From contig NC_002939.5 of NCBI RefSeq assembly GCF_000007985.2, positions 3,570,001-3,602,000 on the forward strand: a DNA stretch of 32,000 nt. The letters run 5' to 3'. Origin of the DNA: Geobacter sulfurreducens PCA (GTDB lineage Bacteria; Desulfobacterota; Desulfuromonadia; Geobacterales; Geobacteraceae). The position numbers and the translations under genes are program-made. Of the stretch, positions 850-28,067 are shown piece by piece. The notes beneath the pieces are model-generated. The model saw only the letters and a list, made by a program, of their open reading frames with translations, ran no database searches and was not told where the DNA came from. Each line of letters begins with the position of its first letter. The stretch's first letter is position 1.

Positions 850-1875
850 ATGTCCGAACTGAGATGGGACCCCCTGAAGCAGCACTGGGTAATCATAGCC
901 ACCGAACGGGGGCGCAGACCCCGGGACTTCATGGTGGAGCACGAAACCACGGATGCGGCCTGCTGCCCTTTCTGCTACGGGCTGGAAGGAAAGACTCCGC
1001 CGGAAATTTACGCCGTACGCGACACGGGCGTCGCTAATTCCCCCGGGTGGAAAGTACGGGTGATCCCCAACAAATACCCGGCCCTGCGTATCGAGGGCAA
1101 CCTCAACAGCCGGGGGTTCGGCCCCTATGACGTCCTGAACGGCATCGGCGCCCATGAAGTGATCATCGAAACCCCCGATCACGACCGGGATATGGCCGAG
1201 CTCTCACCGGCAGAGATCACCGAGGTCCTCAGGGCTTGGCGAGCCCGGTTTCTGGATCTGCGCCGCGACACCCGCTTCCGCTACATGGTCCTCTTCAAAA
1301 ACCACGGCACCAAGGCCGGCGCCACCCTGTCCCACTCTCACAGCCAGCTCATCGCCGTCCCCCTCATCCCCCCGGTGGCGGCAACCGAACTGCGGGTATG
1401 CAAAGAGTACTTCTCCGCCAAGGAGCGTTGCCTCATCTGCGACCTGATCGACTTCGAACTGAAGAGCGGCGAGCGCATCGTCCGGGAGTTCGCCAACTAC
1501 GTCATCATGACCCCCTATGCGGCCTGCTTCCCCTTCGAGGTGCGGCTCTATCCCAAGCGACACGCCTTTGATTTCGCTCTGCTGCCCGATGCGGAACTGG
1601 CGGAGCTGGCTGTGGCGCTCAAGGACATGCTCACCCGCTTGCGAAGCGTCCTGCGCGATCCACCCTACAATTTCATCCTCCATACCGCCCCGCCGCGCCA
1701 TCCGCGCCTCGGCAAGCCCGGCTACTGGAGTTCCATCGAATATGATTACCACTGGCACATCGAATTGGTGCCGAGGCTGACCCAGATCGCCGGGTTCGAG
1801 TGGGGAACCGGCTTCCACATCAATCCGACGTCGCCGGAAGACGCCGCGGCATTCCTCAGGGAAGCGGGGGCATGA
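850..1875 (+). CDS. galT: GalT-like HIT-family hexose-1-phosphate nucleotidyltransferase (galactose-1-phosphate uridylyltransferase family)
   Basis: GGAGGA RBS at 841-846. N-terminal Cys cluster CCPFC. His-x-His-x-Gln active-site-type motif SHSHSQL. Size (341 aa) and overall pattern fit the GalT family. Confidence 0.8.
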   Translation: MSELRWDPLKQHWVIIATERGRRPRDFMVEHETTDAACCPFCYGLEGKTPPEIYAVRDTGVANSPGWKVRVIPNKYPALRIEGNLNSRGFGPYDVLNGIGAHEVIIETPDHDRDMAELSPAEITEVLRAWRARFLDLRRDTRFRYMVLFKNHGTKAGATLSHSHSQLIAVPLIPPVAATELRVCKEYFSAKERCLICDLIDFELKSGERIVREFANYVIMTPYAACFPFEVRLYPKRHAFDFALLPDAELAELAVALKDMLTRLRSVLRDPPYNFILHTAPPRHPRLGKPGYWSSIEYDYHWHIELVPRLTQIAGFEWGTGFHINPTSPEDAAAFLREAGA

Positions 1876-1879
1876 CACG

Positions 1880-3334
1880 ATGAAAGTCCTCATGGTTGCA
1901 TCCGAAGTGGCCCCCTTCGCCCGGACCGGCGGACTGGCCGAGGTGACTGCGGCCCTGCCCGCGGCCTTGCGCCGGATGGGACACGACGTGCGGGTCATCA
2001 TGCCCTTTTATCGGTGCGCTGCCCAGACTGAACTGGGGGTCCGCAAGGCGCGCAAAAGCGCCGAAGTCTCCCTCAATGGCGAGACGCACAAGGGATTTCT
2101 CCGCCAAGCCGCCCTGGGAGATGTGCCGGTCTACTTGGTGGAGAACCGGGAGTTCTTTTCCCGCGACTATCTCTACGGCACACCCGAAGGCGACTATCCG
2201 GACAACCCGCGCCGTTTCGCCTTTTTCTGCCGCAGTGTTTTGCAGTTTCTCAAGCGGATGGACTTTCGCCCCGACGTGATCCACTGCCACGACTGGCAGA
2301 CCGCCCTGATCCCCATCATTCTGCGCCTCGAAGCGGCCGACGACCCGTTTTTCGCCCGTACGGCCACGGTCTTCACCATTCACAACCTGGCCTACCAGGG
2401 GCTGTTTCCCGCCCCGGCCATCGCCGAAACGGGGCTGCCATCAGCTCTGTTCACCACCGAGTGGCTCGAGTACTACGGCCAGCTCAATCTCATGAAGGGG
2501 GCAATCCTCACGGCGGATCTCATCACCACCGTATCCGAAACCTATCGCCGGGAGATCATGACCCCCACGCAGGGATGCGGCCTGGAGGGGGTGCTGGCCC
2601 GGCGCGGCGACGACCTGTTCGGCATCGTGAACGGCATCGATACCGACGAGTGGAATCCGGCCGCCGATAAGCGCATTTTCCGCAACTACTCGGCCCGGGC
2701 TCTGGCAGGCAAGGCCGCTGACAAGCTTGAACTCCAGCGGGAATTGGGCATGCCGGCAGCGCCATCGGTGCCGCTCATCGGCATGGTCAGCCGGCTCGCG
2801 GAGCAAAAGGGGATCGACCTGGTGCTGGAGCTTCTGCCCCGCCTGGCCGAGAGCGAACTTCAATTCGTACTGCTCGGCACCGGCAATGCCTGCTACCTGG
2901 AGCGCCTGAACTCCTTCCGCAGCAAAGGTGCTGCCAACATCTCCATCAACCTGGGCTTCAATGACCCGCTGGCACCGAAGATCTATGCCGGCAGCGACCT
3001 GTTCCTCATGCCGTCGCGTTTCGAGCCGTGTGGCCTGAGCCAGCTCATTGCAATGCGCTACGGGACGGTCCCGGTAGTCCGACACACGGGGGGACTCCGG
3101 GATACGGTCGTCGACGTCACGCGCCATCCCCGCGAGGGGACCGGCTTCACCTTCGAAGACTTTACCGCCGACGCCTGCTGGGAAGCCATCGAACGGGCGC
3201 TGGCCGGCTACCGGGACCGGGAGTCGTGGCGCAGGATCATGCGCAGGGGCATGCACAGAGATGTTTCGTGGCACAATGCGGCAGGCCGCTATGAGACGCT
3301 GTACCGAATGGCGGCGGACACTAGACGGGGGTAG
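1880..3334 (+). CDS. glgA: Glycogen synthase (ADP-glucose type, GT5)
   Basis: N-terminus MKVLMVASEVAPFARTGGLAEV carries the K-x-GGL signature. 484 aa. It starts 5 nt after the galT-like stop. Confidence 0.95.
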   Translation: MKVLMVASEVAPFARTGGLAEVTAALPAALRRMGHDVRVIMPFYRCAAQTELGVRKARKSAEVSLNGETHKGFLRQAALGDVPVYLVENREFFSRDYLYGTPEGDYPDNPRRFAFFCRSVLQFLKRMDFRPDVIHCHDWQTALIPIILRLEAADDPFFARTATVFTIHNLAYQGLFPAPAIAETGLPSALFTTEWLEYYGQLNLMKGAILTADLITTVSETYRREIMTPTQGCGLEGVLARRGDDLFGIVNGIDTDEWNPAADKRIFRNYSARALAGKAADKLELQRELGMPAAPSVPLIGMVSRLAEQKGIDLVLELLPRLAESELQFVLLGTGNACYLERLNSFRSKGAANISINLGFNDPLAPKIYAGSDLFLMPSRFEPCGLSQLIAMRYGTVPVVRHTGGLRDTVVDVTRHPREGTGFTFEDFTADACWEAIERALAGYRDRESWRRIMRRGMHRDVSWHNAAGRYETLYRMAADTRRG

Positions 3335-5451: not shown

Positions 5452-6525
5452 ATGGCAAAAAAACTATTCATTCCCGGACCGGTCGACGTCCACCCCGAGA
5501 TCCTCCAGGCCATGGCCTCTCCCATGATCGGCCACCGCATGCCCGAATACGCAGCGCTCCACGGGCGGGTAACCGCCGGCCTCAAGCGGGTACTGGCCAC
5601 GGACGGACGGGTATTTCTCGCCACATCGAGCGCCTTCGGCGTCATGGAGGGGGCGGTACGGAACCTGGTGGCGAAGCGGTGCGTCAACTTCTGCAACGGC
5701 GCTTTTTCCGACAAATGGCACGACGTGACCAAGCGCTGTGGCAAAGAGGCCGATGCGGTCAAGGTCGAGTGGGGCAAGCCGATCACCCCCGAAATCGTGG
5801 ATCAGGCACTGGCCACGGGCAAGTACGACGCTATCACCCTCATCCACAACGAGACCTCCACCGGGGTCATGTCCCCCCTGCCGGAGATTGCCCGGGTCCT
5901 GCGGAACTATCCCGACGTGGTCTCCATTATCGACACCGTCTCGTCCATGAGCGCGCTCCCCGTTCCCGTGGACGAACTGGGCATCGACTGCTGCATCTTC
6001 GGGGTTCAGAAGGCCTTTGCCCTGCCGCCGGGATTGGCCGTTTTCACCGCCAGTGACAAGGCCCTGGCCCGTGCCAGGACAGTAGAGGGGCGCGGCTACT
6101 ATTTCGACTTCCTTGAATTCGAAGCCAACGACGAAAAAAATAACACCCCCTCGACCCCTTGCATCTCCCACATTTATGCCATGGACCGACAACTGGAGCG
6201 ATTCTTCGCCGAAGGCCTCGAGCAGCGATGGGCACGGCACCGGCAACTGGCGGGAATGGTGCGCGAGTGGGTCACCGACCGGGGATTCGGGTTCTTTGCC
6301 GATGAGCCCTACCGCTCCGTAACCCTCACCTGCGCCCTCAACACCCGGGACACGGACCTGGCCCGGTTGAAGAAGATGCTCGGCGAACGCGGCTACGCCT
6401 TTGACGACGGCTACGGCAAGATCAAGGGTAAGACCTTCCGCGTTGCCCACATGGGAGACATGCAACGGACCGACCTGGAAGAGTTCCTGGCAACGGCCGA
6501 TGAGTGCCTGGCAGAGCTTGGCTAG
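5452..6525 (+). CDS. Class V pyridoxal-phosphate aminotransferase (serine-glyoxylate / phosphoserine aminotransferase-like)
   Basis: GGAGAG RBS. N-terminus LFIPGPVDVHPEILQAM, NETSTGV, and FGVQKAF (PLP lysine context) are typical of AGXT/SerC-like class V enzymes. Confidence 0.88.
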   Translation: MAKKLFIPGPVDVHPEILQAMASPMIGHRMPEYAALHGRVTAGLKRVLATDGRVFLATSSAFGVMEGAVRNLVAKRCVNFCNGAFSDKWHDVTKRCGKEADAVKVEWGKPITPEIVDQALATGKYDAITLIHNETSTGVMSPLPEIARVLRNYPDVVSIIDTVSSMSALPVPVDELGIDCCIFGVQKAFALPPGLAVFTASDKALARARTVEGRGYYFDFLEFEANDEKNNTPSTPCISHIYAMDRQLERFFAEGLEQRWARHRQLAGMVREWVTDRGFGFFADEPYRSVTLTCALNTRDTDLARLKKMLGERGYAFDDGYGKIKGKTFRVAHMGDMQRTDLEEFLATADECLAELG

Positions 6526-6639
6526 CCTATTGCTCGCGCCGATCGCGCCGGCCGCTTCCATTTGCCGTTCCTCATGGTACAAATTTGTGTTATGGTAGAG
6601 TTCATTGTGCCGCTCACCCCTATGTGCAGGAGGGCTTGA

Positions 6640-7092
6640 ATGAACAGCAAAATGATCCTGCTGGTGGAAGACAATCCCGACGACGAGGTTCTGACCCTCC
6701 GCGCCCTCGGCAAACATGCCATTACGCCCGATGTGACGGTAGTGCGCGACGGGGTGGAGGCCCTGGACTTCCTCTTCGGGACAGGCTCCTACAGCGACCG
6801 GGATCTGAGCATCATGCCGAAGCTAGTGCTGCTCGACCTGAAACTGCCCAAGGTGGACGGCCTCGAGGTTTTGCGCCGGCTGAGGGCCGACCAGCGGACG
6901 CGGCTCCTGCCGGTGGTGGTCTTCACCTCCTCCAACGAGGAGCAGGACATCCTCGAATGTCACAACCTCGGCGCCAACAGCTACATCCGCAAGCCGGTGG
7001 ACTTCAATCAACTCAGTGAAGCCCTGCGGCTCATCGGCACCTACTGGCTGAACCTCAACCTCACTCCCAAGTCCGCCGGCGCGGCACGATAG
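6640..7092 (+). CDS. Single-domain response regulator (CheY-like receiver)
   Basis: ILLVEDNPDDEVL, LVLLDLKLPKVDG (phospho-acceptor Asp context), VVVFTSS and YIRKP are canonical REC motifs. AGGAGG RBS. Confidence 0.9.
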   Translation: MNSKMILLVEDNPDDEVLTLRALGKHAITPDVTVVRDGVEALDFLFGTGSYSDRDLSIMPKLVLLDLKLPKVDGLEVLRRLRADQRTRLLPVVVFTSSNEEQDILECHNLGANSYIRKPVDFNQLSEALRLIGTYWLNLNLTPKSAGAAR

Positions 7093-9171: not shown

Positions 9172-9867
9172 ATGAAGGAACCACGCGTACTGCTCGTTGA
9201 TGACGAGCGATTCTTCCTGAATCTCCAGCAGGAGTTTCTGGCGGATTCCCCCGTGCGGGTCATCACCGCCCAGAACGGCCGGGAGGCGCTTGACATGATC
9301 CAGCGGGACCGGCCGGGCATCGTCTACCTGGATCTACGGATGCCTGAACTTGATGGTGCCGCCTGTTGCTCCGCCATCAAGAACAACCCCGATCTCAGGA
9401 ACACGCCGGTGGTCATGGTGGTGAGCGAGGGTAAGCCCCGCGATCGGGAGGTCTGCCTGGATGCCGGGTGCAACGGCATCATCAGCAAGCCGCTGGACCG
9501 GATTCAGTTCCTGTCGGTGGGTCGGCGGCTCTTCCCGGCCATTGAACGCCGCCAGCCCCGCTATCCCTTCTCGGCCCTCGCCTTCTTCCGGATCCGGGAT
9601 ACCAGCTTCCACGGCACCATCGCCGACATCAGCCTCGGCGGCGCCTATATCGCGTGTCGCTGCGACCTCGCCGCAAAGGAGGATATCCGTCTCGGCTTTA
9701 TCCTCGACAACACGGCGGTCGTCGAATGCCGGGCGCGGGTCGCCTGGACGAACCAGGGGGGAATGCGCCCCCGCAAGAGCCTTCCGGACGGATTCGGCGT
9801 CCAGTTCCAGGCCATGGAGCCTCCTCACCAGGAGGTTGTCCGGCAGCTCGTGGCGAGGCTCGGATGA
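9172..9867 (+). CDS. Response regulator with C-terminal PilZ (c-di-GMP binding) domain
   Basis: REC motifs: LLVDDE, VYLDLRMPELDG and ISKPL. PilZ motifs: RRQPR (9547-9561) and DISLGG (9625-9642). Confidence 0.88.
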   Translation: MKEPRVLLVDDERFFLNLQQEFLADSPVRVITAQNGREALDMIQRDRPGIVYLDLRMPELDGAACCSAIKNNPDLRNTPVVMVVSEGKPRDREVCLDAGCNGIISKPLDRIQFLSVGRRLFPAIERRQPRYPFSALAFFRIRDTSFHGTIADISLGGAYIACRCDLAAKEDIRLGFILDNTAVVECRARVAWTNQGGMRPRKSLPDGFGVQFQAMEPPHQEVVRQLVARLG

Positions 9868-19667: not shown

Positions 19668-20717
19668 TCAGGAATGGTTTTTCCGCCGACCCAGGTCCGG
19701 CCGATCCGATTCCCCGACATGGGCGACCGTGGCGGTAAGGCAACTCAGGCAATCCCTAAGCGTGCAGACACCACACGAATGGTGCATGAAGACTGGGATA
19801 CCATTCTGCTTCGCCACGGCCATGGCCTCGTTCTTCACCCGGTGGGACACCTTGTTGGTGAAGATGACCAAGGCATCGAAGCGCTTCAATTTGACGGCGA
19901 TATTGTTTTCCGACTGGGAGAACATTCGCAGCTCCACCCCTGAACGGACCGCCTCTTCCCGATAGTGTTTCTCCAGGCGGTCCATGCCGCCGATCACCGC
20001 AATGCACATGGCCTTACCCCCATAACTATGACTTTCAATTTCATCAAAACCGACAACTGGGCGTGGTGACCCGTCCGCCAGACAATCGAGCGCCGACGTG
20101 CATCTGTTCAAGCGTTCCGCCATCCGAGCCCGGCAACAGCGAAAGACTTCGGCAAGGCGCAGACTCTCCCTGGGATCGCCGAATATCTTCCACGGCCCCT
20201 GGCAGGCGAACGGAATCCTCACCAACCCCATGAATGCCGCCACATCTTTAAGGGGATAGCCTAGAAACACCCCGATCTCATGAGGGAATCGGTCACCGTC
20301 AATGCGAGTCGACAGTTCCGTCAGCACTTCATCAAGCCCGGTTGCAGCACCGTATCCCGCCCGCGCCAGCACTGCTGAAGCACTGGGGCGGCGCAGCAGC
20401 GCCTCAAGGGCTTCCGGGCGATAAAGAAGCAGCAACAATGAATCCCCACGGTCGGACAACTCCCGGACGGCAAGGCCGCTCTCGCCCAGCACCATCGCCC
20501 CCCACTGCTTCCAGAGGACGTAAAGGTTGCGGCCGCATGCACGGGTACGGTTGGCGATACCGATCAGGTTGGCGGGCTTTTCGCCCGCAAGCACCTCAGC
20601 CGCTTCCAGCGCGAGAAACGACGCAAGACACTCCCGGGGCTCATCGAACCGTTCCGCCAGATCGTGCCAGACCGGCCGCCGGACACCGTGCCGCATTTCC
20701 GAAATCATCTGCCCCAT
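19668..20717 (-). CDS. Uncharacterised cytoplasmic protein, DUF3793-like N-domain fused to DUF2325-like C-domain with a terminal Cys cluster
   Basis: EVLAGEKPANL and FPHEIGVFLGYPLKDV...CQGPWKIF resemble DUF3793. CIAVIGG...DALVIFTNKVSHRVKNEAMAVAKQNGIPV resembles DUF2325. The C-terminus carries CGVC-x4-CLSC. It starts 18 nt after the pccH stop. Confidence 0.75.
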   Translation of the reverse strand: MGQMISEMRHGVRRPVWHDLAERFDEPRECLASFLALEAAEVLAGEKPANLIGIANRTRACGRNLYVLWKQWGAMVLGESGLAVRELSDRGDSLLLLLYRPEALEALLRRPSASAVLARAGYGAATGLDEVLTELSTRIDGDRFPHEIGVFLGYPLKDVAAFMGLVRIPFACQGPWKIFGDPRESLRLAEVFRCCRARMAERLNRCTSALDCLADGSPRPVVGFDEIESHSYGGKAMCIAVIGGMDRLEKHYREEAVRSGVELRMFSQSENNIAVKLKRFDALVIFTNKVSHRVKNEAMAVAKQNGIPVFMHHSCGVCTLRDCLSCLTATVAHVGESDRPDLGRRKNHS

Positions 20718-21335: not shown

Positions 21336-21364
21336 TTGATTCTCCGACGCCGGTTTCTTAGAAT
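21336..21364 (+). promoter_or_regulatory. Candidate sigma70 promoter for the 21395 operon
   Basis: TTGATT (21336-21341), 17 nt spacer, TAGAAT (21359-21364). It lies ~30 nt upstream of the GTG start. Confidence 0.45.
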
Positions 21365-21394: not shown

Positions 21395-22624
21395 GTGGTC
21401 ACAATCCTACTCATTGCCGATCAAGCTCGGCTTGAAGGACTCTTCAGCTTCACGAAGGAGTCTTCTCAGATTCACTTCAGGATGTGTCGGACCCTGAACC
21501 AGGGCACCGAGGAGATGGCCGAATCCTCCCCCGACTTCCTCTTCATCCAGAACCATCTGTCGGGACTTTCGGGCGAAATTCTCGCACGGCACCTGATCTC
21601 GGGCCAAACGGACGGGCGACCGACGATCGTTCTGTTCGGCGATGCGACCGAGTGCACACCGGTGCCAGGCGTAATCGACTCATGCCTGGACCTCACTCAG
21701 GCGGATGTGGTCCTCTCCGCCGCCATTATCGGTCTCATTACCGGCGCCATGCACCGGCAGGACGTGCCGGCGGTGACGGAGGCAGGGGCCGAAACGGAGG
21801 AGGCCGCCACCCCATCCCAGGCGACGCAGGTGGCCGACGATGTCCCCCCGACTCCGGAACCAACGGAGCCGTCCCCCTTTGACCAGAAATTACAGAGTGT
21901 CTTGGAAGAGACCCTTCCCCCGGTGCCTCTAGCCGAGATCGAGGAGCACGTGGCCCTTGGCCGGCAGGCTGAACCTGCGCATGAAGACGCGCCCCAGGAA
22001 CAGCCTGCCCGCAGTCGGCCCGGCGCCTTGCGGTCCACGGTCAGGCCGTTCGCTATCGGGATAGCTGTGTTGATTGTCGCGGCAGCGGTCATCTATCTCG
22101 CCGTCTCGCTTGGCACCAACTCCACAACGCACCCCACGCAGACCCCAGTTGCCGAGGTTAAACCTACGCCTTCCGGCACAGCGCAGCAGAAGCCAGCGTC
22201 GCAGCCGCCGGCACCTGCACCGGAGACATTGCCTCCGGCGATCGCTCCCGCCCAGACCCCACCGGCCGGCATGACCGAACTGCCCCCCTTCATCCCTCGC
22301 CAGAAACCTGACCGCGCGTATGGCGAAAAAAATCCCGGATGGGAGCGATACCTGGGCGCCCGCACCGAGTTCAAGGTCTACCGCGAGGCAGGTATCATCA
22401 AGGCGATCCAGTCCATCGACCGTAGCGGTGTCGGGATCCCCGAATCGTTCATGCGCGGAGCCCTTGAGCAAATGACCCGGGTACGACAGTTCTCAATCAA
22501 CGGCAAGGAAACCAAGGGCTCTTTCCACGTGGAAAAGGGTACGACCACGGCCGGGGCCAGGATACTGATCTACCGGACAGCGCCCAAAGGCTCCATCAGG
22601 GCGTTTGTAGTCTATTTCCCCTGA
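21395..22624 (+). CDS. Bitopic membrane protein: degenerate receiver-like cytoplasmic domain, TM helix, Pro-rich spacer, and an unknown ~120-aa periplasmic domain
   Basis: GTG start with a GGGGGA RBS. Receiver-like strand pattern ILLIAD / PDFLFIQNHLSGLSG / TIVLFG, but without the acceptor Asp. TM helix FAIGIAVLIVAAAVIYLAV. Spacer KPASQPPAPAPETLPPAIAPAQTPP. Confidence 0.65.
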   Translation: MVTILLIADQARLEGLFSFTKESSQIHFRMCRTLNQGTEEMAESSPDFLFIQNHLSGLSGEILARHLISGQTDGRPTIVLFGDATECTPVPGVIDSCLDLTQADVVLSAAIIGLITGAMHRQDVPAVTEAGAETEEAATPSQATQVADDVPPTPEPTEPSPFDQKLQSVLEETLPPVPLAEIEEHVALGRQAEPAHEDAPQEQPARSRPGALRSTVRPFAIGIAVLIVAAAVIYLAVSLGTNSTTHPTQTPVAEVKPTPSGTAQQKPASQPPAPAPETLPPAIAPAQTPPAGMTELPPFIPRQKPDRAYGEKNPGWERYLGARTEFKVYREAGIIKAIQSIDRSGVGIPESFMRGALEQMTRVRQFSINGKETKGSFHVEKGTTTAGARILIYRTAPKGSIRAFVVYFP

Positions 22625-22656
22625 TGGCCCTGCCATCCCGCTCTCCGAGGAACCAC

Positions 22657-24309
22657 ATGAACACATGCCATTTCTACCGGGTCCAGTTGCTTCGTGCCTC
22701 TCTTCTGCTCATGGCCATTAGCGCCACGGCGTCAGCCTCCGCCACCTCTTTCGAACTCGACGTGAAGGACCTGCAGACCGTTGCCCCGGCCAAGCGCGCT
22801 CCCAAGCGCAAAGCCCCCGCTCCGGCCGCTTCTGCCGAAACCAAGCGCGATACCGTCCCTGCCGAAACGAAGAGGGGTGTTTCCCGTTATACCGTTAAGC
22901 CGGGTGACTTCATCTTCAAGATACTGATGCGGGAATACGGCCTTTCAAATGCGGCGGCTGAAGCGCTCATCCCTGAAATCCAGAGGATCAACAACCTGCG
23001 GAGCATCACTCGTCTTTCGGTTGGACAGACCATCCTCATTCCCCTTGAGGGGCCACGGGCTGCTGTACGCGTTCAGGAGTTCGGTGAACGCCGGGAGACG
23101 GCCGAACCCGCCGCAACCGTAGCAGTTGCCCCCCCTACGGAGCCATCGCCCCAGGTTGTTGAATCAGGCCCGGCTCCACCGTCTGAGCAGACAGCCCCCC
23201 CTGTTACTGAAGCCGCCGCTCCCGTGCCCCCCCGGCCCGAGCCGGCACCGGCAACGCGCCCCGCTGAAGCAGCACCACCGATCTCCCCGGCACCGGTCGT
23301 CGTTTCGGCGCCCTCCTCTTTCAGCCGGCGGCTCATCACCCTGTGGCAGAGCCTCGTCCCCGGCCAGGAAAGGGTGGAACCCATCACACTCAACGGCAGG
23401 GTGCTCCCGCCCGAGGAATTCCCCCTTCTTCTCGCCGCTGACGGTGGGAAGATACTGGTCGACATGAAAGGGACTCTGCTTCCCCGCGACAAAAGCACCT
23501 TGGCTGAAAGACATCCCGATATCCGGCTGGTCTCGCGCGGAGCCAGCAGTGAACGGGATTTTTTCACCGTCCTGCTGCGCACCGCGGAATTTGCCCACGT
23601 GGAAGAAGACGCCGTCGCCACAATAGGCTCCGATCCCCAGCTCACGGTCAAGGCCGACTACCGAATTACCAGGCTGCCGGCAGTTGCCACGCGTGGACCG
23701 GAAAATGTATTTCTCTTTCTTGAGCGTAACGGGTCCTGCCTCCCAGCAGCACTCATCTCGGCCCTTGCCGATAACGGGATCAACAGTGTGGAATTCTGCG
23801 ATGTCGCTCCGCAGCCGCCGTCGGTACCGGGCTACGAGTTGAGGAGCGTAACCGGCACGACCCCGTGCGAATTGGCTGTCCAATTGCTTGGTGTCCTGGC
23901 CGTGAAGCTTGACCGCAACCGGATTGTATCGGGCTCCATGGGGGAGAATGCGGAGAGCCGGTTCAGCATCCGCGTGGATGGATATTTTGAAAACGACGGG
24001 AAGAAGTTCATCCTGAGCTGTAACGACAATGACTCCTACAACTACACGCTCTTTCGCCTGCTGCAGCTGGAAGGATACGGCATCATCCAACTGGGAGACA
24101 AAGACGACTTCGCCACCGTCGCGGACAAGATCCTCACGGTTCTGCGCTATCCCCACTCCTTCGGCCGCCATGATTTCACCCATGACCGTTATACCGTATC
24201 GGCGCTGGGGTTCAGGGTGACGCGGCTGGGGCCGGTTAGCGGCCGCATGCTGATCATCGATCGCCCCGTGGACCCGGCATTCGCAGAATTATTACAATGG
24301 GAACGCTAG
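22657..24309 (+). CDS. Secreted LysM-domain protein with a Pro-rich spacer and a large unknown C-terminal domain
   Basis: I prefer the ATG at 22657 (AGGA RBS), which gives the signal peptide MNTCHFYRVQLLRASLLLMAISATASASA. The alternative ATG at 22624 overlaps the upstream stop. The LysM domain YTVKPGDFIFKI...LSVGQTILIPL spans ~22888-23046. Confidence 0.75.
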   Translation: MNTCHFYRVQLLRASLLLMAISATASASATSFELDVKDLQTVAPAKRAPKRKAPAPAASAETKRDTVPAETKRGVSRYTVKPGDFIFKILMREYGLSNAAAEALIPEIQRINNLRSITRLSVGQTILIPLEGPRAAVRVQEFGERRETAEPAATVAVAPPTEPSPQVVESGPAPPSEQTAPPVTEAAAPVPPRPEPAPATRPAEAAPPISPAPVVVSAPSSFSRRLITLWQSLVPGQERVEPITLNGRVLPPEEFPLLLAADGGKILVDMKGTLLPRDKSTLAERHPDIRLVSRGASSERDFFTVLLRTAEFAHVEEDAVATIGSDPQLTVKADYRITRLPAVATRGPENVFLFLERNGSCLPAALISALADNGINSVEFCDVAPQPPSVPGYELRSVTGTTPCELAVQLLGVLAVKLDRNRIVSGSMGENAESRFSIRVDGYFENDGKKFILSCNDNDSYNYTLFRLLQLEGYGIIQLGDKDDFATVADKILTVLRYPHSFGRHDFTHDRYTVSALGFRVTRLGPVSGRMLIIDRPVDPAFAELLQWER

Positions 24310-24325
24310 CAGCATAGGGCAGAAA

Positions 24326-24369
24326 ATGCAAAGAGGGGGGCGTCCGTCGGGACACCCCCCTCTTTGCAT
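24326..24369. terminator. Bidirectional terminator hairpin between the convergent operons
   Basis: Perfect 15-bp stem ATGCAAAGAGGGGGG/CCCCCCTCTTTGCAT, with an inner GTCC/GGAC extension. Confidence 0.7.
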
Positions 24370-24405
24370 ATGAACCGCCTGCCGTTCGGCTGAGTGGTTA
24401 GAGCG

Positions 24406-25113
24406 TTACTGACCGGCCATCTTGAGGAAGGCATCCGCACGATAGAGCGTTGCATCGGGGACCAGTGGAGAGGACGGATAACGGGCCAGGAAGCGCTCGA
24501 ACAGCTCAACGGACTGCGAATAGGCTCCTGACTTGTATGCGCTCACTCCTTTCTCGTAGAGAGAGTGCTCGTTATCATCCGCCTTTCCCGTTTGAGGTCG
24601 GTGCGCTTCCGCCGCAGGCCGCGAAGGCACGGGGGGGGTGGCGGCCGCTGGTTCCGGCGTCCGCACGGATGTGGTCACAGTGGACTCCCGCTTTGCCTCC
24701 CGGTGGGCCGCGACCGGCGCAACCTTCTCCCGGGCGGGGCGAACGGCTGACTCTCTTTTTGCCGCGGCGGCCGGAACAGCGGAGGGCTGTTGGCTGAACA
24801 CCGCTTTCGGACCGGCCGGGGCCACCGGCACCATGAGTTTATTGCCGGCGTAGATAAGGTCGGGGTTCTTGATTTCGTTGAAGAGAAGTATCTGGGGGTA
24901 GTACCCGCCCTTACCGTTGTACTTGCGGGAGAGGGAATACAGGGTATCCCCCTTCTGGACGGTAATGCTCTTGACGAGCACTCCCTCGTCCGGGCCCGAA
25001 GGACGGCTCCCTTCCGAAGCCCCGGGCGTATAGAGAAGGTATTCCCCGCCGGCCGCCAGGGAGGCCATGGAGAGGACGAGGGAGGCGGAAACAACCCTGA
25101 GTGCGCTCTTCAT
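24406..25113 (-). CDS. Secreted LysM-domain protein with a C-terminal YbgF/CpoB-like TPR segment
   Basis: Signal peptide MKSALRVVSASLVLSMASLAAG. LysM domain ITVQKGDTLYSLSRKY...YAGNKLMVPV (~24826-24969). Pro/Ala linker. C-terminal YEKGVSAYKSGAYSQSVELFERFLARYPSSPLVPDA. Confidence 0.78.
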   Translation of the reverse strand: MKSALRVVSASLVLSMASLAAGGEYLLYTPGASEGSRPSGPDEGVLVKSITVQKGDTLYSLSRKYNGKGGYYPQILLFNEIKNPDLIYAGNKLMVPVAPAGPKAVFSQQPSAVPAAAAKRESAVRPAREKVAPVAAHREAKRESTVTTSVRTPEPAAATPPVPSRPAAEAHRPQTGKADDNEHSLYEKGVSAYKSGAYSQSVELFERFLARYPSSPLVPDATLYRADAFLKMAGQ

Positions 25114-25114
25114 A

Positions 25115-27979
25115 TCAGTACCTGTTCCCCAACTGGTCTTGATACTTCAGGACATTCTTGACCTGGATGCTCGTTCCCACGGCTGTGCCCGAACGGACGC
25201 GGAACGTTACCTTGATGGTGCGTTTCTCGCTGGCGCCCAGTTCGTCGAAGGTCCAGAGATAGTCGCCGTTGGCATTCCGGACGAACGACGGATCGGACGC
25301 CACCAGCTCCAGGTCCTTGGGCATGGTGCTTTGGAGTTCGACACTCTTGGCCATGTTTGAACCGCGGTTCGTGAAGTTCAGCTCGAAGGAGGAAACCTCG
25401 CCCGGCTTCAGGCGTCCTCCCTTGCCGCTCATAACCAGGTCCACCACCGGCCGTGAGTAGAGGAGGCGCAACGAGGCAAGAGCACCCCGGGCCTGGTCGG
25501 TTTCCGGCTCGAAGGCCAGGGACACTGTGGCGGCAGTCCCGTCGCTCTCCGAGAAGGGAGTGGACAGATCGAGGATCACGTACGATTCTTCCTTGGGCGC
25601 GAGGGGCCCTACGTGGTTGATGATCGGCTCGTTGTTCTGCCGGATGCCGTCGCGGTTCAGGTCCTGGTAGACGGTATAGGCCACGTTCGGCGGAAGATTG
25701 GGCTTGATGATGACATCCTCGCGCTGGTTGCCGGTGTTGGTAACCACCAGAGGAATCGAAACCTGCTGGCCGGGAATCACCACAAGTTTCTCGCTGGCGG
25801 TCCTGACGGCCACCCCGCTTACCGGTTTGACCACAGCCGCCGCAGAGATGAACGAATCGCGAGTCTGCAGCTCGCTGTTGACCAAGTCGGCGCGCAGGAA
25901 GAGTTCCTGACGTGCAATGGCCTCATCCTTGAGCTGGAACGTCACCTCGAACTCCCGGCTCTCGCCGGAGACCAGCCGCATGCCGTCCAGAACGAGAGCC
26001 GCCTTCATTTCCTGCTTGAACCCAGCCTCGCCAAAGCCCACCGGCTCATACTGGGGCGGGTAGTTCAGGCGAAGTGCCACGCCCTGGGCAGCGGCAGTGC
26101 CGATATTGAGGAGCACAACCCGATAGGAGACCTTCTCCCCGGGAAGCACCTGATTCTTGTCCGTCTTGACCACTGCCCGCAGGAGCGGAGCCGATGCGGT
26201 CAGAAAGATGTCCCGCGCCTGGGATGCCTCACGGTCGAGCCGCGAAGCGACCTTGATCGGATAGACGAGCTTCTGTCCGTCAATAGCTTCGCGCGGCACC
26301 GCAATGGAGAGTATCCCCCGGAATCGTTCCCCCGGCGCCAGGGAAGGTGTCAGATTGATCGGCATCTCCTTCCGGCCGGCATCGGCGAACTGGGCTCCGA
26401 ATTCGGAGGGGAAACCCGATTCAAGATAGAAGCTGTCGGTTCCGTTGCCCCGGTTGACCACTTCAAAGGGGATCTCGTGGCGTTTTCCGGCCTCAAGGCC
26501 CTGGGCCGGGGCTTGAATCATCAGATCGGCATCGGCGAACTGCCCCACTTCCAGCGTGAGAATCTGGGCATTCTTTTCGGGGAGTGCCGGAGGGGCAGCG
26601 GCAACGGCCGGACTTGGCGCGACATGGGTGATTCCCATCTCCGCGAGCTTGGCGGCAGCAGCAGCGGCGGCCCGGGTCCCCGGGAAGCGGTCGATGAGCG
26701 ATTTATACTCGGCAACGGCCTTCTCGCGCAGAGCGGCCCGCTTCTGTTCCTCGGCGCGGCGAACGGCGGACTGTTCAGTCTCTTCCTTCTGGCGGGCAGC
26801 CTTCTCGGCAGCCAGGCGTTCGGCAGCCTCCCTGTCGCGCCGGGCCTGGTCGGCGGCCACGCGCTCGGCTTCGACCTTGGCTGCCGCCGCCTGCTCCGCT
26901 GCTCTCAATTCTGCGGCAGTCTTCTCTGCGGCAAGACGCTCAGCTTCGGCTTTCTCGCGGGCGGCCTGCTCTGCGGCAAGACGCCCGGCAGCCGCCTTCT
27001 CTTCTGCGGCCTTCTGGGCGGCAACCCGCTCAGCCTCGGCCTTCTCACGGGCAGCCTGCTCTGCGGCACGGCGCTCGGCAGCCACCTTCTCTTCTGCAGC
27101 CTTCTGGGCAGCAACCCGCTCAGCTTCGGCTTTCTCGCGGGCAGCCTGCTCTGCGGCACGGCGCTCGGCAGCCACCTTCTCTTCTGCAGCCTTCTGGGCA
27201 GCAACCCGCTCAGCTTCGGCTTTCTCGCGGGCAGTCTGCTCTGCAACACGGCGCTCGGCAGTCGCCTTTTCCTGAGCGGCTTTCTGGGCGGCAAGCCTCT
27301 CTGCCTCCACCCGTTCCCGGGCAGCCTGCTCCGCGGCAAGGCGCTCGGCGGCCGCTTTCTCCTCAGCCGCTTTCTCCTCAGCCGCTTTCCGAGCGACAGC
27401 TTGACTCGCAGCGGTAGCGGCAGCAGTGGCGGCACCTACCGCCTCAGCAGTAGTGGTGGCAGCGCCAGCAGTAATGCTCGCCGCTTTCTGGGCAGCCTGC
27501 TCAGCAGCCTGGCGGGCAGAGGCGGTCTTTTCAGCCAGGACCTGGCGGGCAACCGAAGTCTCCGATACCGGCGCCTCGGCTCCACGCCGAGCCATTGCCG
27601 GGAGTTGCTCCCCCTTGTCGTAACGTGTTACGAGGCCAAGGAGATCGTCCTCCACGGTTCCCTTGAGAGGACTGTCGGGGTATTCCTTGAAAAACTGCGA
27701 CATATAGCGGGCGGCATCCCGCTCGTACCCAGCTTTGAAGCTTGCCCGGGCAAGCCAGAAAATGGCCATGTCGCGCAACGGCGTATCGGGATACTTATCG
27801 AGGACCGTCTTCATCCGGTCGATGGCTGCTTGGTAGTCCTTCTTCTGATAGGCGTTGAAGCCGGCAATGAATATCTGTGAGTCTTCAGAGGTGACGGCAA
27901 AGGCGGGGGAGGTAAGAAGCGACGCGATTATGAGATATCCGGCAAGGCACCTGACAAAGGTAGTGCGGAAGGATTTCAT
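25115..27979 (-). CDS. Large secreted envelope protein: YbgF-like TPR, TolA-like Ala/Glu/Lys/Arg helical repeat region, then several DUF11/CARDB-like beta-sandwich domains
   Basis: The ATG at 27979 gives signal peptide MKSFRTTFVRCLAGYLIIASLLTSPAFA. The track start at 28015 is a TTG. TPR motifs are LDKYPDTPLRDMA and FKEYPDSPLKG. A ~300-aa AEKAA-type region follows. The C-terminal half has repeated 'PGE-VS-x-V-x-N-GT/N' strands. The stop lies 1 nt before the next gene's start. Confidence 0.78.
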   Translation of the reverse strand: MKSFRTTFVRCLAGYLIIASLLTSPAFAVTSEDSQIFIAGFNAYQKKDYQAAIDRMKTVLDKYPDTPLRDMAIFWLARASFKAGYERDAARYMSQFFKEYPDSPLKGTVEDDLLGLVTRYDKGEQLPAMARRGAEAPVSETSVARQVLAEKTASARQAAEQAAQKAASITAGAATTTAEAVGAATAAATAASQAVARKAAEEKAAEEKAAAERLAAEQAARERVEAERLAAQKAAQEKATAERRVAEQTAREKAEAERVAAQKAAEEKVAAERRAAEQAAREKAEAERVAAQKAAEEKVAAERRAAEQAAREKAEAERVAAQKAAEEKAAAGRLAAEQAAREKAEAERLAAEKTAAELRAAEQAAAAKVEAERVAADQARRDREAAERLAAEKAARQKEETEQSAVRRAEEQKRAALREKAVAEYKSLIDRFPGTRAAAAAAAKLAEMGITHVAPSPAVAAAPPALPEKNAQILTLEVGQFADADLMIQAPAQGLEAGKRHEIPFEVVNRGNGTDSFYLESGFPSEFGAQFADAGRKEMPINLTPSLAPGERFRGILSIAVPREAIDGQKLVYPIKVASRLDREASQARDIFLTASAPLLRAVVKTDKNQVLPGEKVSYRVVLLNIGTAAAQGVALRLNYPPQYEPVGFGEAGFKQEMKAALVLDGMRLVSGESREFEVTFQLKDEAIARQELFLRADLVNSELQTRDSFISAAAVVKPVSGVAVRTASEKLVVIPGQQVSIPLVVTNTGNQREDVIIKPNLPPNVAYTVYQDLNRDGIRQNNEPIINHVGPLAPKEESYVILDLSTPFSESDGTAATVSLAFEPETDQARGALASLRLLYSRPVVDLVMSGKGGRLKPGEVSSFELNFTNRGSNMAKSVELQSTMPKDLELVASDPSFVRNANGDYLWTFDELGASEKRTIKVTFRVRSGTAVGTSIQVKNVLKYQDQLGNRY
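26911..27360 (-). repeat. In-frame 90-bp (30-aa) tandem repeat array, five or more units, inside the large envelope gene
   Basis: The units at 27001-27090, 27091-27180 and 27181-27270 differ at only 5-6 of 90 positions. The flanking units are more diverged. Each unit encodes AERRAAEQAAREKAEAERVAAQKAAEEKVA and has a 15-aa sub-period. Confidence 0.9.
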
Positions 27980-28038
27980 AAAATTCACGGGCTTAACCTT
28001 TCCAGTGGCTTGCAAGGGGTGTAAGTAATCAGTTCAGT

Positions 28039-28067
28039 TACATAGCATCATAACTGTGGCTTGTCAA
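28039..28067 (-). promoter_or_regulatory. Candidate sigma70 promoter for the large envelope gene operon
   Basis: On the minus strand: TTGACA (28067-28062), 17 nt spacer, TATGTA (28044-28039). Confidence 0.45.

Follow-up and report, generated by a model that had tools for sequence, protein, structure and literature searches.

In the Geobacter sulfurreducens PCA chromosome, four genes between pccH and uvrC, here called A, B, C and D, encode envelope proteins and are arranged as two convergent pairs. The window analysed is a stretch of 32,000 nucleotides (NC_002939.5, positions 3,570,001 to 3,602,000), and coordinates below are counted from its first letter. The order of genes in this part of the window is feoAAB, an OprB porin, a DUF3793/DUF2325 protein, pccH, A, B, C, D, uvrC, a redoxin and a thioredoxin. 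In assembly GCA_024205665.1 the gene order agrees over 20 kb, and the B counterpart there is 99% identical. Because pccH is GSU3274 according to the literature, and four genes stand between pccH and uvrC, A to D probably correspond to GSU3275 to GSU3278. We found no literature on GSU3275-3277, GSU3278 appears in one transposon sequencing (Tn-seq) table only, and the supplementary tables do not contain these locus tags. The four genes, with product lengths in amino acids (aa), are:

21395 to 22624, plus strand: gene A, 409 aa, a bitopic inner-membrane protein, probably GSU3275.
22624 to 24309, plus strand: gene B, 561 aa (550 aa from the ATG at 22657), a secreted LysM protein, probably GSU3276.
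24406 to 25113, minus strand: gene C, 235 aa, a secreted protein with LysM, linker and tetratricopeptide repeat (TPR), probably GSU3277.
25115 to 28015, minus strand: gene D, an open reading frame (ORF) of 966 aa for a secreted multidomain protein, probably GSU3278.

All four ORFs claimed in a preliminary description of this region are present, as are the two tight junctions to which it drew attention. The stop codon of A and the start codon of B overlap by one base (cTGATGg, 22622-22626), at the place for which it proposed translational coupling, and the D stop and C start are separated by a single nucleotide at 25114 (TGAtATG). The description was also right that none of the four envelope proteins has an enzyme or transporter domain, that each pair contains one LysM protein (B and C both score above the Pfam cut-off), and that long low-complexity spacers occur. 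It went on to read the four genes as one module, and considered a part in electron transfer conceivable from the adjacency of pccH.

The distribution of the genes leads to a different view of the module. We gathered 80 loci from one-genome-per-species contigs with a profile of B, and further loci through exact-match look-ups, about 90 in all; scoring relied on tblastn and on clusters made from all of their ORFs. All collected loci come from Geobacterales/Desulfuromonadales. Wherever B is full-length and the sequence reaches far enough upstream (about 75 loci), gene A is in essentially all cases the gene immediately 5' of B, and many loci of type 1, the window type, have an A/B overlap of 1 or 4 nt. 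The 1-nt gap between D and C is identical in the window and in loci L086, L090 and L091. The last two, from Desulfuromonadaceae, carry D-C beside uvrC with no A-B nearby; the A-B-type pair of these genomes is at a distance of over 1 Mb or on a different contig (L090 versus L025; L091 versus L052). About 60 loci have A-B or paralogues of it without C-D, and none of the Geomonas/Citrifermentans A-B pairs has C-D within 10 kb. The two pairs are contiguous in 21 loci only, all of them with the convergent arrangement A-B><C-D-uvrC and all from Geobacter proper or certain other Geobacteraceae.

Thus A-B is a fixed cassette confined to the Geobacterales/Desulfuromonadales, D-C is a separate fixed pair, and the region consists of two independently conserved pairs that are neighbours in one family. 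This conclusion is much firmer than the link to a motor ATPase that we discuss below. It does not sustain the single four-gene module. Nor does the supposed tie to pccH survive: pccH, the DUF3793/DUF2325 gene and the OprB gene adjoin A in G. sulfurreducens loci only, and we have dropped an electron-transfer role based on a neighbour specific to that species.

One could still suppose that A, B, C and D build one peptidoglycan-tethered, periplasm-spanning scaffold that joins the inner membrane, murein and outer layers. The four-gene order is kept in the 21 loci even as the gene that precedes A changes (pccH, HPPK or a DEAD helicase), there is one LysM protein per pair, all four proteins have long spacers, and a single hairpin is common to both operons. 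However, D-C is conserved in places with no A-B nearby, some 60 loci have an A-B-type pair and no C-D, and the convergent orientation excludes co-transcription. The functionally unrelated uvrC is as persistent a neighbour in the 21 loci as the four-gene arrangement itself, so synteny of the four genes is weak evidence of shared function. We consider a common scaffold of all four proteins unlikely.

The regulatory signals of the two pairs are:

21336 to 21364, plus strand: sigma-70-like promoter of A, TTGATT and TAGAAT separated by 17 nt, with 9/12 consensus positions (a consensus match only).
28039 to 28067, minus strand: candidate promoter of D-C, TTGACA (28067-28062) and TATGTA (28044-28039) separated by 17 nt, read from the sequence.
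24325 to 24370, either strand: hairpin between the convergent operons, with a 20-bp stem, a folding energy (dG) of -49.9 kcal/mol and a z-score of -7.7.

A good sigma-70-like promoter had been proposed for each pair. A has a consensus-like site; the D-C site is less good than claimed, with a perfect -35 element and a weak -10 element that caused the promoter scan to pass it over. The hairpin had been taken for a bidirectional terminator. It is indeed shared, but a U-tract follows it on the minus strand only, and it is predicted to act as a full intrinsic terminator for D-C and as a hairpin only for A-B.

Protein A has the following parts:

21395 to 21760, plus strand: predicted pseudo-receiver domain, residues 1-122, cytoplasmic, from Foldseek and alignments.
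22046 to 22108, plus strand: transmembrane helix, residues 218-238, from the model and the sequence, preceded by a basic stretch that places the N-terminus inside.
22268 to 22621, plus strand: periplasmic domain, residues 292-409, with conserved LPxFIP...PGWERY....

The AlphaFold2 (AF2) model of A, built from an alignment of 26 homologues, has a predicted local distance difference test (pLDDT) score above 90 at residues 1-122 and 292-409 and a helix crossing the membrane at 218-238. A receiver-fold domain is followed by this helix, a Pro-rich spacer and a 115-aa C-terminal domain that is modelled confidently; the model and Foldseek agree with the earlier account of a bitopic protein, which could span from the cytoplasm into the periplasm. 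Scans of A against Pfam and NCBIfam gave no family. Its 48 matches all come from Geobacteraceae and relatives, and no relatives at the sequence level were found outside Geobacterales/Desulfuromonadales.

Against the PDB, Foldseek pairs the N-terminal domain of A with the receivers of FrzS, DivK and PhoP (E ~5e-5, TM-score 0.7-0.78, probability 1.0), and the model has the CheY-like (beta-alpha)5 fold of receiver domains. Alignments put Gln52 in the place of the phospho-acceptor Asp, invariant across every lineage of the family. Aligned to CheY by eye, A has Gly and Asp/Leu at the positions of the conserved Thr/Ser (beta4) and Lys (beta5), and Pfam Response_reg gave no match to A at E up to 0.1. 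Given that the phospho-acceptor is replaced by an invariant Gln, the cytoplasmic domain of A is, as judged from these alignments, a pseudo-receiver incapable of phosphorylation. The best structural match, FrzS, is itself a pseudo-receiver protein, which acts in the pilus-dependent motility of Myxococcus; it shares with A the receiver fold and the lack of a phosphorylatable Asp. However, ordinary receivers match A almost equally well, and A differs from FrzS in being membrane-anchored, with a periplasmic domain and no FrzS coiled coil.

The periplasmic domain of A is kept in all locus types in the alignment. Its fold has no informative counterpart in our searches: the Foldseek list against the PDB was full of receivers, a search of a viral library gave no informative match, and hhalign found no similarity between this domain and the subdomains of B.

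Protein B has two well-modelled parts:

22879 to 23043, plus strand: LysM domain, residues 86-140, with a Pfam score of 26.4 bits against a cut-off of 20.9 and pLDDT above 90.
23311 to 24294, plus strand: family-specific alpha/beta region, residues 230-557, of about three subdomains, with pLDDT of about 90.

These parts bear out the description of B as a secreted LysM protein with a Pro-rich spacer and a region of about 330 aa. In order, B has a signal peptide, a conserved SFELDxKDLE motif, the LysM domain (matched to a LysM effector by Foldseek at probability 1.0), the Pro-rich spacer and the 330-aa C-terminal region. Its start is ambiguous between the ATG at 22624, which overlaps the A stop, and the ATG at 22657, 11 codons later, the NCBI choice. 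A phmmer search of 1.84 billion representative proteins found 152 relatives of the C-terminal region, all of similar length; none is fused to an informative domain and none lies outside Geobacterales/Desulfuromonadales. The Foldseek matches of this region are weak multidomain ones to PrgH, PrgK and YscD, which are periplasmic ring-building arrays of type III secretion systems (E ~7e-3, probability up to 0.33). At such probabilities we refuse homology to PrgH/PrgK/YscD, as to gelsolin, and take the matches as a hint that B may contain tandem small alpha/beta modules. Local Foldseek matches to a restriction-endonuclease-like topology, of probability above 0.9 but low TM-score, are not accepted as homology either. 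No internal repeat within the region was found by hhalign.

Shorter B-like proteins of 297-358 aa occur in five loci (L067 9944-11008, L074 10001-10894, L078 611-1516, L081 9941-10873 and L083 3810-4886). Besides the LysM domain, they retain the motif after the signal peptide and a terminal domain that bears a YTxxRLL-like motif; they stand in other gene contexts, and no A-like gene was detected upstream of them. Elsewhere, dapF (diaminopimelate epimerase) lies directly 3' of B in three or four loci, and in L034, L045 and L082 B is followed by dapF and an endonuclease-IV-like gene. This adjacency may be a further link to murein precursors, or a coincidence.

A lead on what the A/B family does, which the preliminary description missed, comes from its paralogues. 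Five genomes have a second pair, A'-B', in addition to one of the window type (L004 and L012, L005 and L010, L006 and L019, L007 and L009, L008 and L051), the two types being 26-33% identical. In 45 loci, a gene for a full-length PilB-like ATPase of 640 aa lies 3' of A'-B' on the same strand, after a gap of 18-157 nt. This ATPase is 64-94% identical between loci. Its Pfam matches are T2SSE (400 bits) and MshEN (62.6 bits), and it contains the MshE-related motif that binds cyclic di-GMP (c-di-GMP) (NF053729, 69 bits against a cut-off of 38). Its sequence shows a Walker A and a tetracysteine motif, as in the PilB/GspE family to which the protein belongs, while its scores stay below the equivalog cut-offs of both PilB (TIGR02538, 554 bits against 675.65) and GspE (TIGR02533, 493 bits against 630.25).

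No PilC/GspF platform, pilin or secretin gene lies within 10 kb of the A'-B'-ATPase genes. The genes downstream of the triad fall into at least two unrelated sets, rimP-nusA-infB and pheA-tyrA-aroA-cmk-ispH-rpsA, and its upstream contexts differ too. A second type of association is seen in 10 Geomonas/Citrifermentans loci, where a PilT-like ATPase is encoded 4-5 kb from A-B; in at least five of the 10 an SLT lytic transglycosylase gene adjoins A-B. The A/B family is therefore repeatedly encoded beside PilB/PilT-family ATPases. In the Geobacter hydrogenophilus locus L051 (11576-13488), the PilB-like ATPase gene aligns as two overlapping pieces, which suggests a frameshift or an assembly error.

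Gene order suggests that the triad of G. sulfurreducens would be GSU2611-2609, with GSU2609 as the ATPase; direct look-ups of the triad in this species returned metagenomic contigs only. GSU2609 has been described as an orphan with expression in anode biofilms, one of several PilB homologues in G. sulfurreducens that lack an explanation (PMC8557921).

Sequence searches of the PDB, whether begun from A, B, C or the C-terminal half of D or from family profiles of A and B, returned only generic LysM, TPR and receiver matches and one match to the transmembrane and Pro-rich region of VirB10, judged compositional. Of known systems, GspA/GspB (ExeA/ExeB), an accessory complex in type II secretion, are an inner-membrane and periplasmic pair with a cytoplasmic domain of nucleotide-binding fold, a transmembrane helix and a peptidoglycan-binding element; GspA combines an AAA+ ATPase domain with a PG_binding_1 domain. 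Like GspA/GspB and like MshM/MshN, whose genes precede mshE, A'-B' is a two-protein module encoded next to a GspE/MshE-type ATPase. Unlike GspA, A has a pseudo-receiver in place of AAA+, and the murein-binding element is a LysM on the separate, secreted B rather than PG_binding_1. Neither AAA+ nor PG_binding_1 was matched in A or B by Pfam or NCBIfam, there is no sequence similarity, and the window A-B pair has no adjacent ATPase.

FimV/HubP and TsaP, which belong to type IVa pilus machines, resemble these proteins in attaching to murein by LysM and in carrying TPRs or extra periplasmic domains. The TPRs of FimV, a single transmembrane protein, are cytoplasmic; B, C and D, by contrast, are fully secreted. 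As for TsaP, no FlgT-like domain was detected in B or C, the match of C to TsaP is confined to the LysM part and B has no TsaP match; there are no adjacent pil genes in the window, pilQ included. Because none of the defining features tested was found, the A-B cassette is not a member of the GspA/GspB, FimV or TsaP families, although it would be functionally comparable to them.

The second pair is built differently, and its parts are:

24826 to 24966, minus strand: LysM domain of C, residues 50-96, with a Pfam score of 42.7 bits against a cut-off of 20.9.
24421 to 24564, minus strand: BamD/YbgF-like TPR of C, residues 184-231, with the motif ARYPSSPL and profile matches below the cut-offs.
27641 to 27883, minus strand: BamD/CpoB-like TPRs of D, residues 45-125, with the motifs DKYPDTPL and KEYPDSPL.
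26696 to 27568, minus strand: helical spacer of D, residues ~150-440, rich in Ala, Glu, Lys and Arg and containing 90-nt tandem repeats.
25118 to 26527, minus strand: Ig-like array of D, residues ~497-966, of beta-sandwich domains, the last being CLIPPER/DUF11 (25157-25411).

Protein C consists of a signal peptide, the LysM domain, a linker and one TPR unit of BamD/YbgF type. The LysM part of the earlier description is secure: B and C both pass the gathering score of PF01476 and are predicted to attach to murein through LysM, and the PDB matches of the C domain include Ecp6 and TsaP (3jc8), on the LysM part only (E 8.9e-6). The TPR part is weaker, with YfiO at E 7.8e-5 and tol_pal_ybgF at E 3.9e-7, both under their curated cut-offs, and a PDB match to BamD (3qky) at E 6e-6. 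B, C and D all have signal peptides in their sequences, and none of the three has a lipobox.

Protein D starts with a signal peptide, followed by two to three TPRs of BamD/CpoB type, a helical region rich in Ala, Glu and Lys (AEK-rich) and the Ig-like array. These three parts of the earlier reading stand, with qualifications. The TPR_6 and CpoB matches are sub-threshold in the window protein; homologues of D give an unmarked match to YfiO (PF13525). Just one Ig-like domain passes a curated threshold: residues 869-953 match CLIPPER/DUF11 (PF01345) with 58.9 bits against a gathering cut-off of 24.6, and the matches to Chlam_OMP6, CARDB and NPCBM_assoc (34 bits for the last) are weaker. The likeness to TolA is compositional only, and the spacer itself has only compositional matches, to HC2/histone-H1-like models. 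The YPxxPL motifs said to recur in both minus-strand proteins (LDKYPDTPL, FKEYPDSPL, LARYPSSPL) are read as described.

The spacer of D includes a 90-nt tandem repeat at 26916-27375 on the minus strand (5.1 copies, 85% identity) that encodes 30-aa AEK-rich units. Its length is variable, since the ORF of D differs among homologues: 966 aa here, 961 aa in CP072789.1 and ~750 to 870 aa in others. We found 258 homologues of D, and the best 120 of them are at least 50% identical across the Ig-like half; judged from such sequence searches, D is the more widespread family. The start of D is ambiguous within 36 nt (TTG 28015, GTG 27988, ATG 27979), GTG 27988 or ATG 27979 being likely.

The TPRs and spacer invite comparison with TolA, CpoB and BamD. 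C and D share with that group the YPxxPL-type TPRs (E 4e-7 to 8e-5), and the long Ala/Glu/Lys-rich segment of D is like TolA domain II in composition. However, a cleavable signal peptide takes the place of the TolA membrane anchor in D, and TolA_C gave no match to the protein. Its anchoring is not BamD-like either, because it has no lipobox. Against the CpoB/YbgF equivalog models, C scores 30.7 bits (cut-off 90.1) and D 27.5 bits (cut-off 383), and no tol-pal genes were seen among the window ORFs scanned against Pfam.

Such parts could nevertheless mean that peptidoglycan synthesis or hydrolysis, as in cell division or constriction, is what the LysM proteins and their partners regulate, without any link to pili or secretion; they would then be comparable to hydrolase activators that bear LysM and to the coordination of CpoB with TolA. 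Besides the YbgF/CpoB- and BamD-type TPRs of C and D and the TolA-like helix of D, this idea could draw on the SLT lytic transglycosylase or DapF genes beside A-B in some lineages, on a DivIVA-domain gene after D-C in L090 and L091, and on weak matches to ActS and YneA at the level of LysM. Yet the CpoB, YbgF, ActS and YneA matches fall far under the cut-offs and concern generic TPR and LysM parts only. There are no adjacent tol-pal, dcw or amidase genes, and the 45-locus association with a PilB-like ATPase would be left unexplained. A purely murein-remodelling role is improbable in our estimation.

The only phenotype on record for A to D is an electrode Tn-seq score. On electrodes poised at -0.1 V, GSU3278 has a log2 ratio of -2.0, which places it in the same threshold class as pilQPOM, pilC and surface polysaccharide genes (PMC5585712). 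Growth on electrodes needs attachment and biofilm formation, and the lower growth of GSU3278 insertion mutants could mean that D is an exported surface adhesin or biofilm-matrix protein with an Ig-like/CLIPPER stalk, anchored or exported by C, with A-B unrelated. CLIPPER/DUF11 domains are typical of cell-surface fibrillar adhesins, and many of them lack the Lys-Asn isopeptide and catalytic Asp residues (bioRxiv 10.1101/2025.04.25.650565). Through its above-threshold CLIPPER domain, D resembles CLIPPER/CARDB-type Ig-like arrays of surface proteins and Chlamydia OmcB. D differs from such arrays in adding TPRs and a helical spacer and in pairing with a LysM protein, and we found no description in the literature of this architecture of Ig-like array, TPRs and spacer with a LysM partner. 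Moreover, D has only a Sec signal peptide, with no outer-membrane anchor and no autotransporter, type I secretion or sortase-type signal. The BamD/YbgF type to which its N-terminal TPRs belong is periplasmic, its partner C is predicted to bind murein, and its Ig-like half is unusually conserved, unlike variable adhesins. We regard an adhesin as very unlikely.

The reading that we favour, tentatively, is that A-B forms a bridge from the inner membrane to murein that serves an ATPase or machine of the type IV filament class, while D-C is a separate murein-tethered scaffold. In this scenario, A would bind B, so that the pair connects the inner membrane with peptidoglycan; among the paralogues, A' may use its pseudo-receiver or its cytoplasmic linker to dock the c-di-GMP-responsive ATPase of the triad. 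The cassette could thereby hold a motor of the type IV filament class (pilus or type II secretion) at the cell wall, set its position there or regulate it. We suspect such a role because the most widespread paralogue is operon-like with an orphan MshEN ATPase of the PilB/GspE family. The window A-B pair would be a paralogue unlinked from the ATPase, which may serve the same motor or another partner. As for the other pair, C may tether D to murein, with the contact perhaps made by the related BamD/YbgF-type TPRs of the two proteins, and D would supply a long helical spacer of variable length together with a strongly conserved Ig-like/CLIPPER array. D-C could then be a scaffold fixed to murein, on which normal electrode growth depends.

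Several points weigh against this reading. No ATPase gene lies within 10 kb of the window A-B copy, and the motor link is for that reason carried over from paralogues at the low identity given above. The link itself is a matter of gene neighbourhood only: neither A nor B has sequence similarity or confident fold similarity to any known component of type II secretion systems or type IV pili, and the PrgH/PrgK-like Foldseek matches of B have probabilities of 0.2-0.3. The cytoplasmic linker of A has a conserved SPFDxxL motif for which alignments show no evident counterpart among the ATPase-linked paralogues. D and C may sit in the periplasm or at the cell surface, and the assignment of GSU3275-3278 to A to D has contiguous numbering from pccH as its sole basis. 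In addition, the A-B><C-D order persists over quite divergent Geobacteraceae, and some functional link between A-B and C-D is possible.

A bolder extension of the bridge-and-motor reading would be that the A/B family and the MshEN-PilB-like ATPase constitute an unrecognised minimal machine, in which a c-di-GMP-controlled hexameric motor without pilin, platform or secretin is coupled through A' to murein-bound B' and acts on or through the cell wall. The window copy would then be a derived, motor-less paralogue that works with the D-C scaffold and aids the envelope organisation required for electrode growth. We consider this extension distinctly improbable.

Some further features of the window may be recorded. 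A 231-aa protein in which a canonical receiver is fused to PilZ, a c-di-GMP receptor domain, is encoded at 9172-9867 on the plus strand, just 3' of uvrB and ~12 kb from A. The DUF3793/DUF2325 fusion (19668-20717, minus strand) that is peculiar to G. sulfurreducens loci lies between the OprB-type porin/feoAAB cluster and pccH. GalT-like and glycogen-metabolism genes occur near the D-C/uvrC region both in the window (850-3334, plus strand) and in L090/L091 (15153-18550); their recurrence in distant Desulfuromonadaceae may be a remnant of older synteny. Two long ORFs, at 51-839 on the plus strand and 5464-6717 on the minus strand (262 and 417 aa), are putative genes with no Pfam match.

Taken as a group, A to D are lineage-restricted, uncharacterised envelope proteins that combine known modules (pseudo-receiver, LysM, TPR, CLIPPER) with new domains. 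Should they prove to be ordinary structural envelope proteins, they would be of local interest only. Geobacter is a model organism for extracellular electron transfer in which the assembly and regulation of pili or pseudopili and of secretion machines are disputed. According to a recent review, no PilB cofactors are known in Geobacter (PMC11656802). For the accessory or anchoring components that are missing, a lineage-specific pseudo-receiver/LysM cassette with a genetic tie to a PilB-like ATPase provides concrete candidates, and the A'-B' linkage offers a testable role for an orphan motor. D-C, in turn, is a murein-linked pair conserved across the order, one gene of which has an electrode phenotype in Tn-seq and no assigned function.

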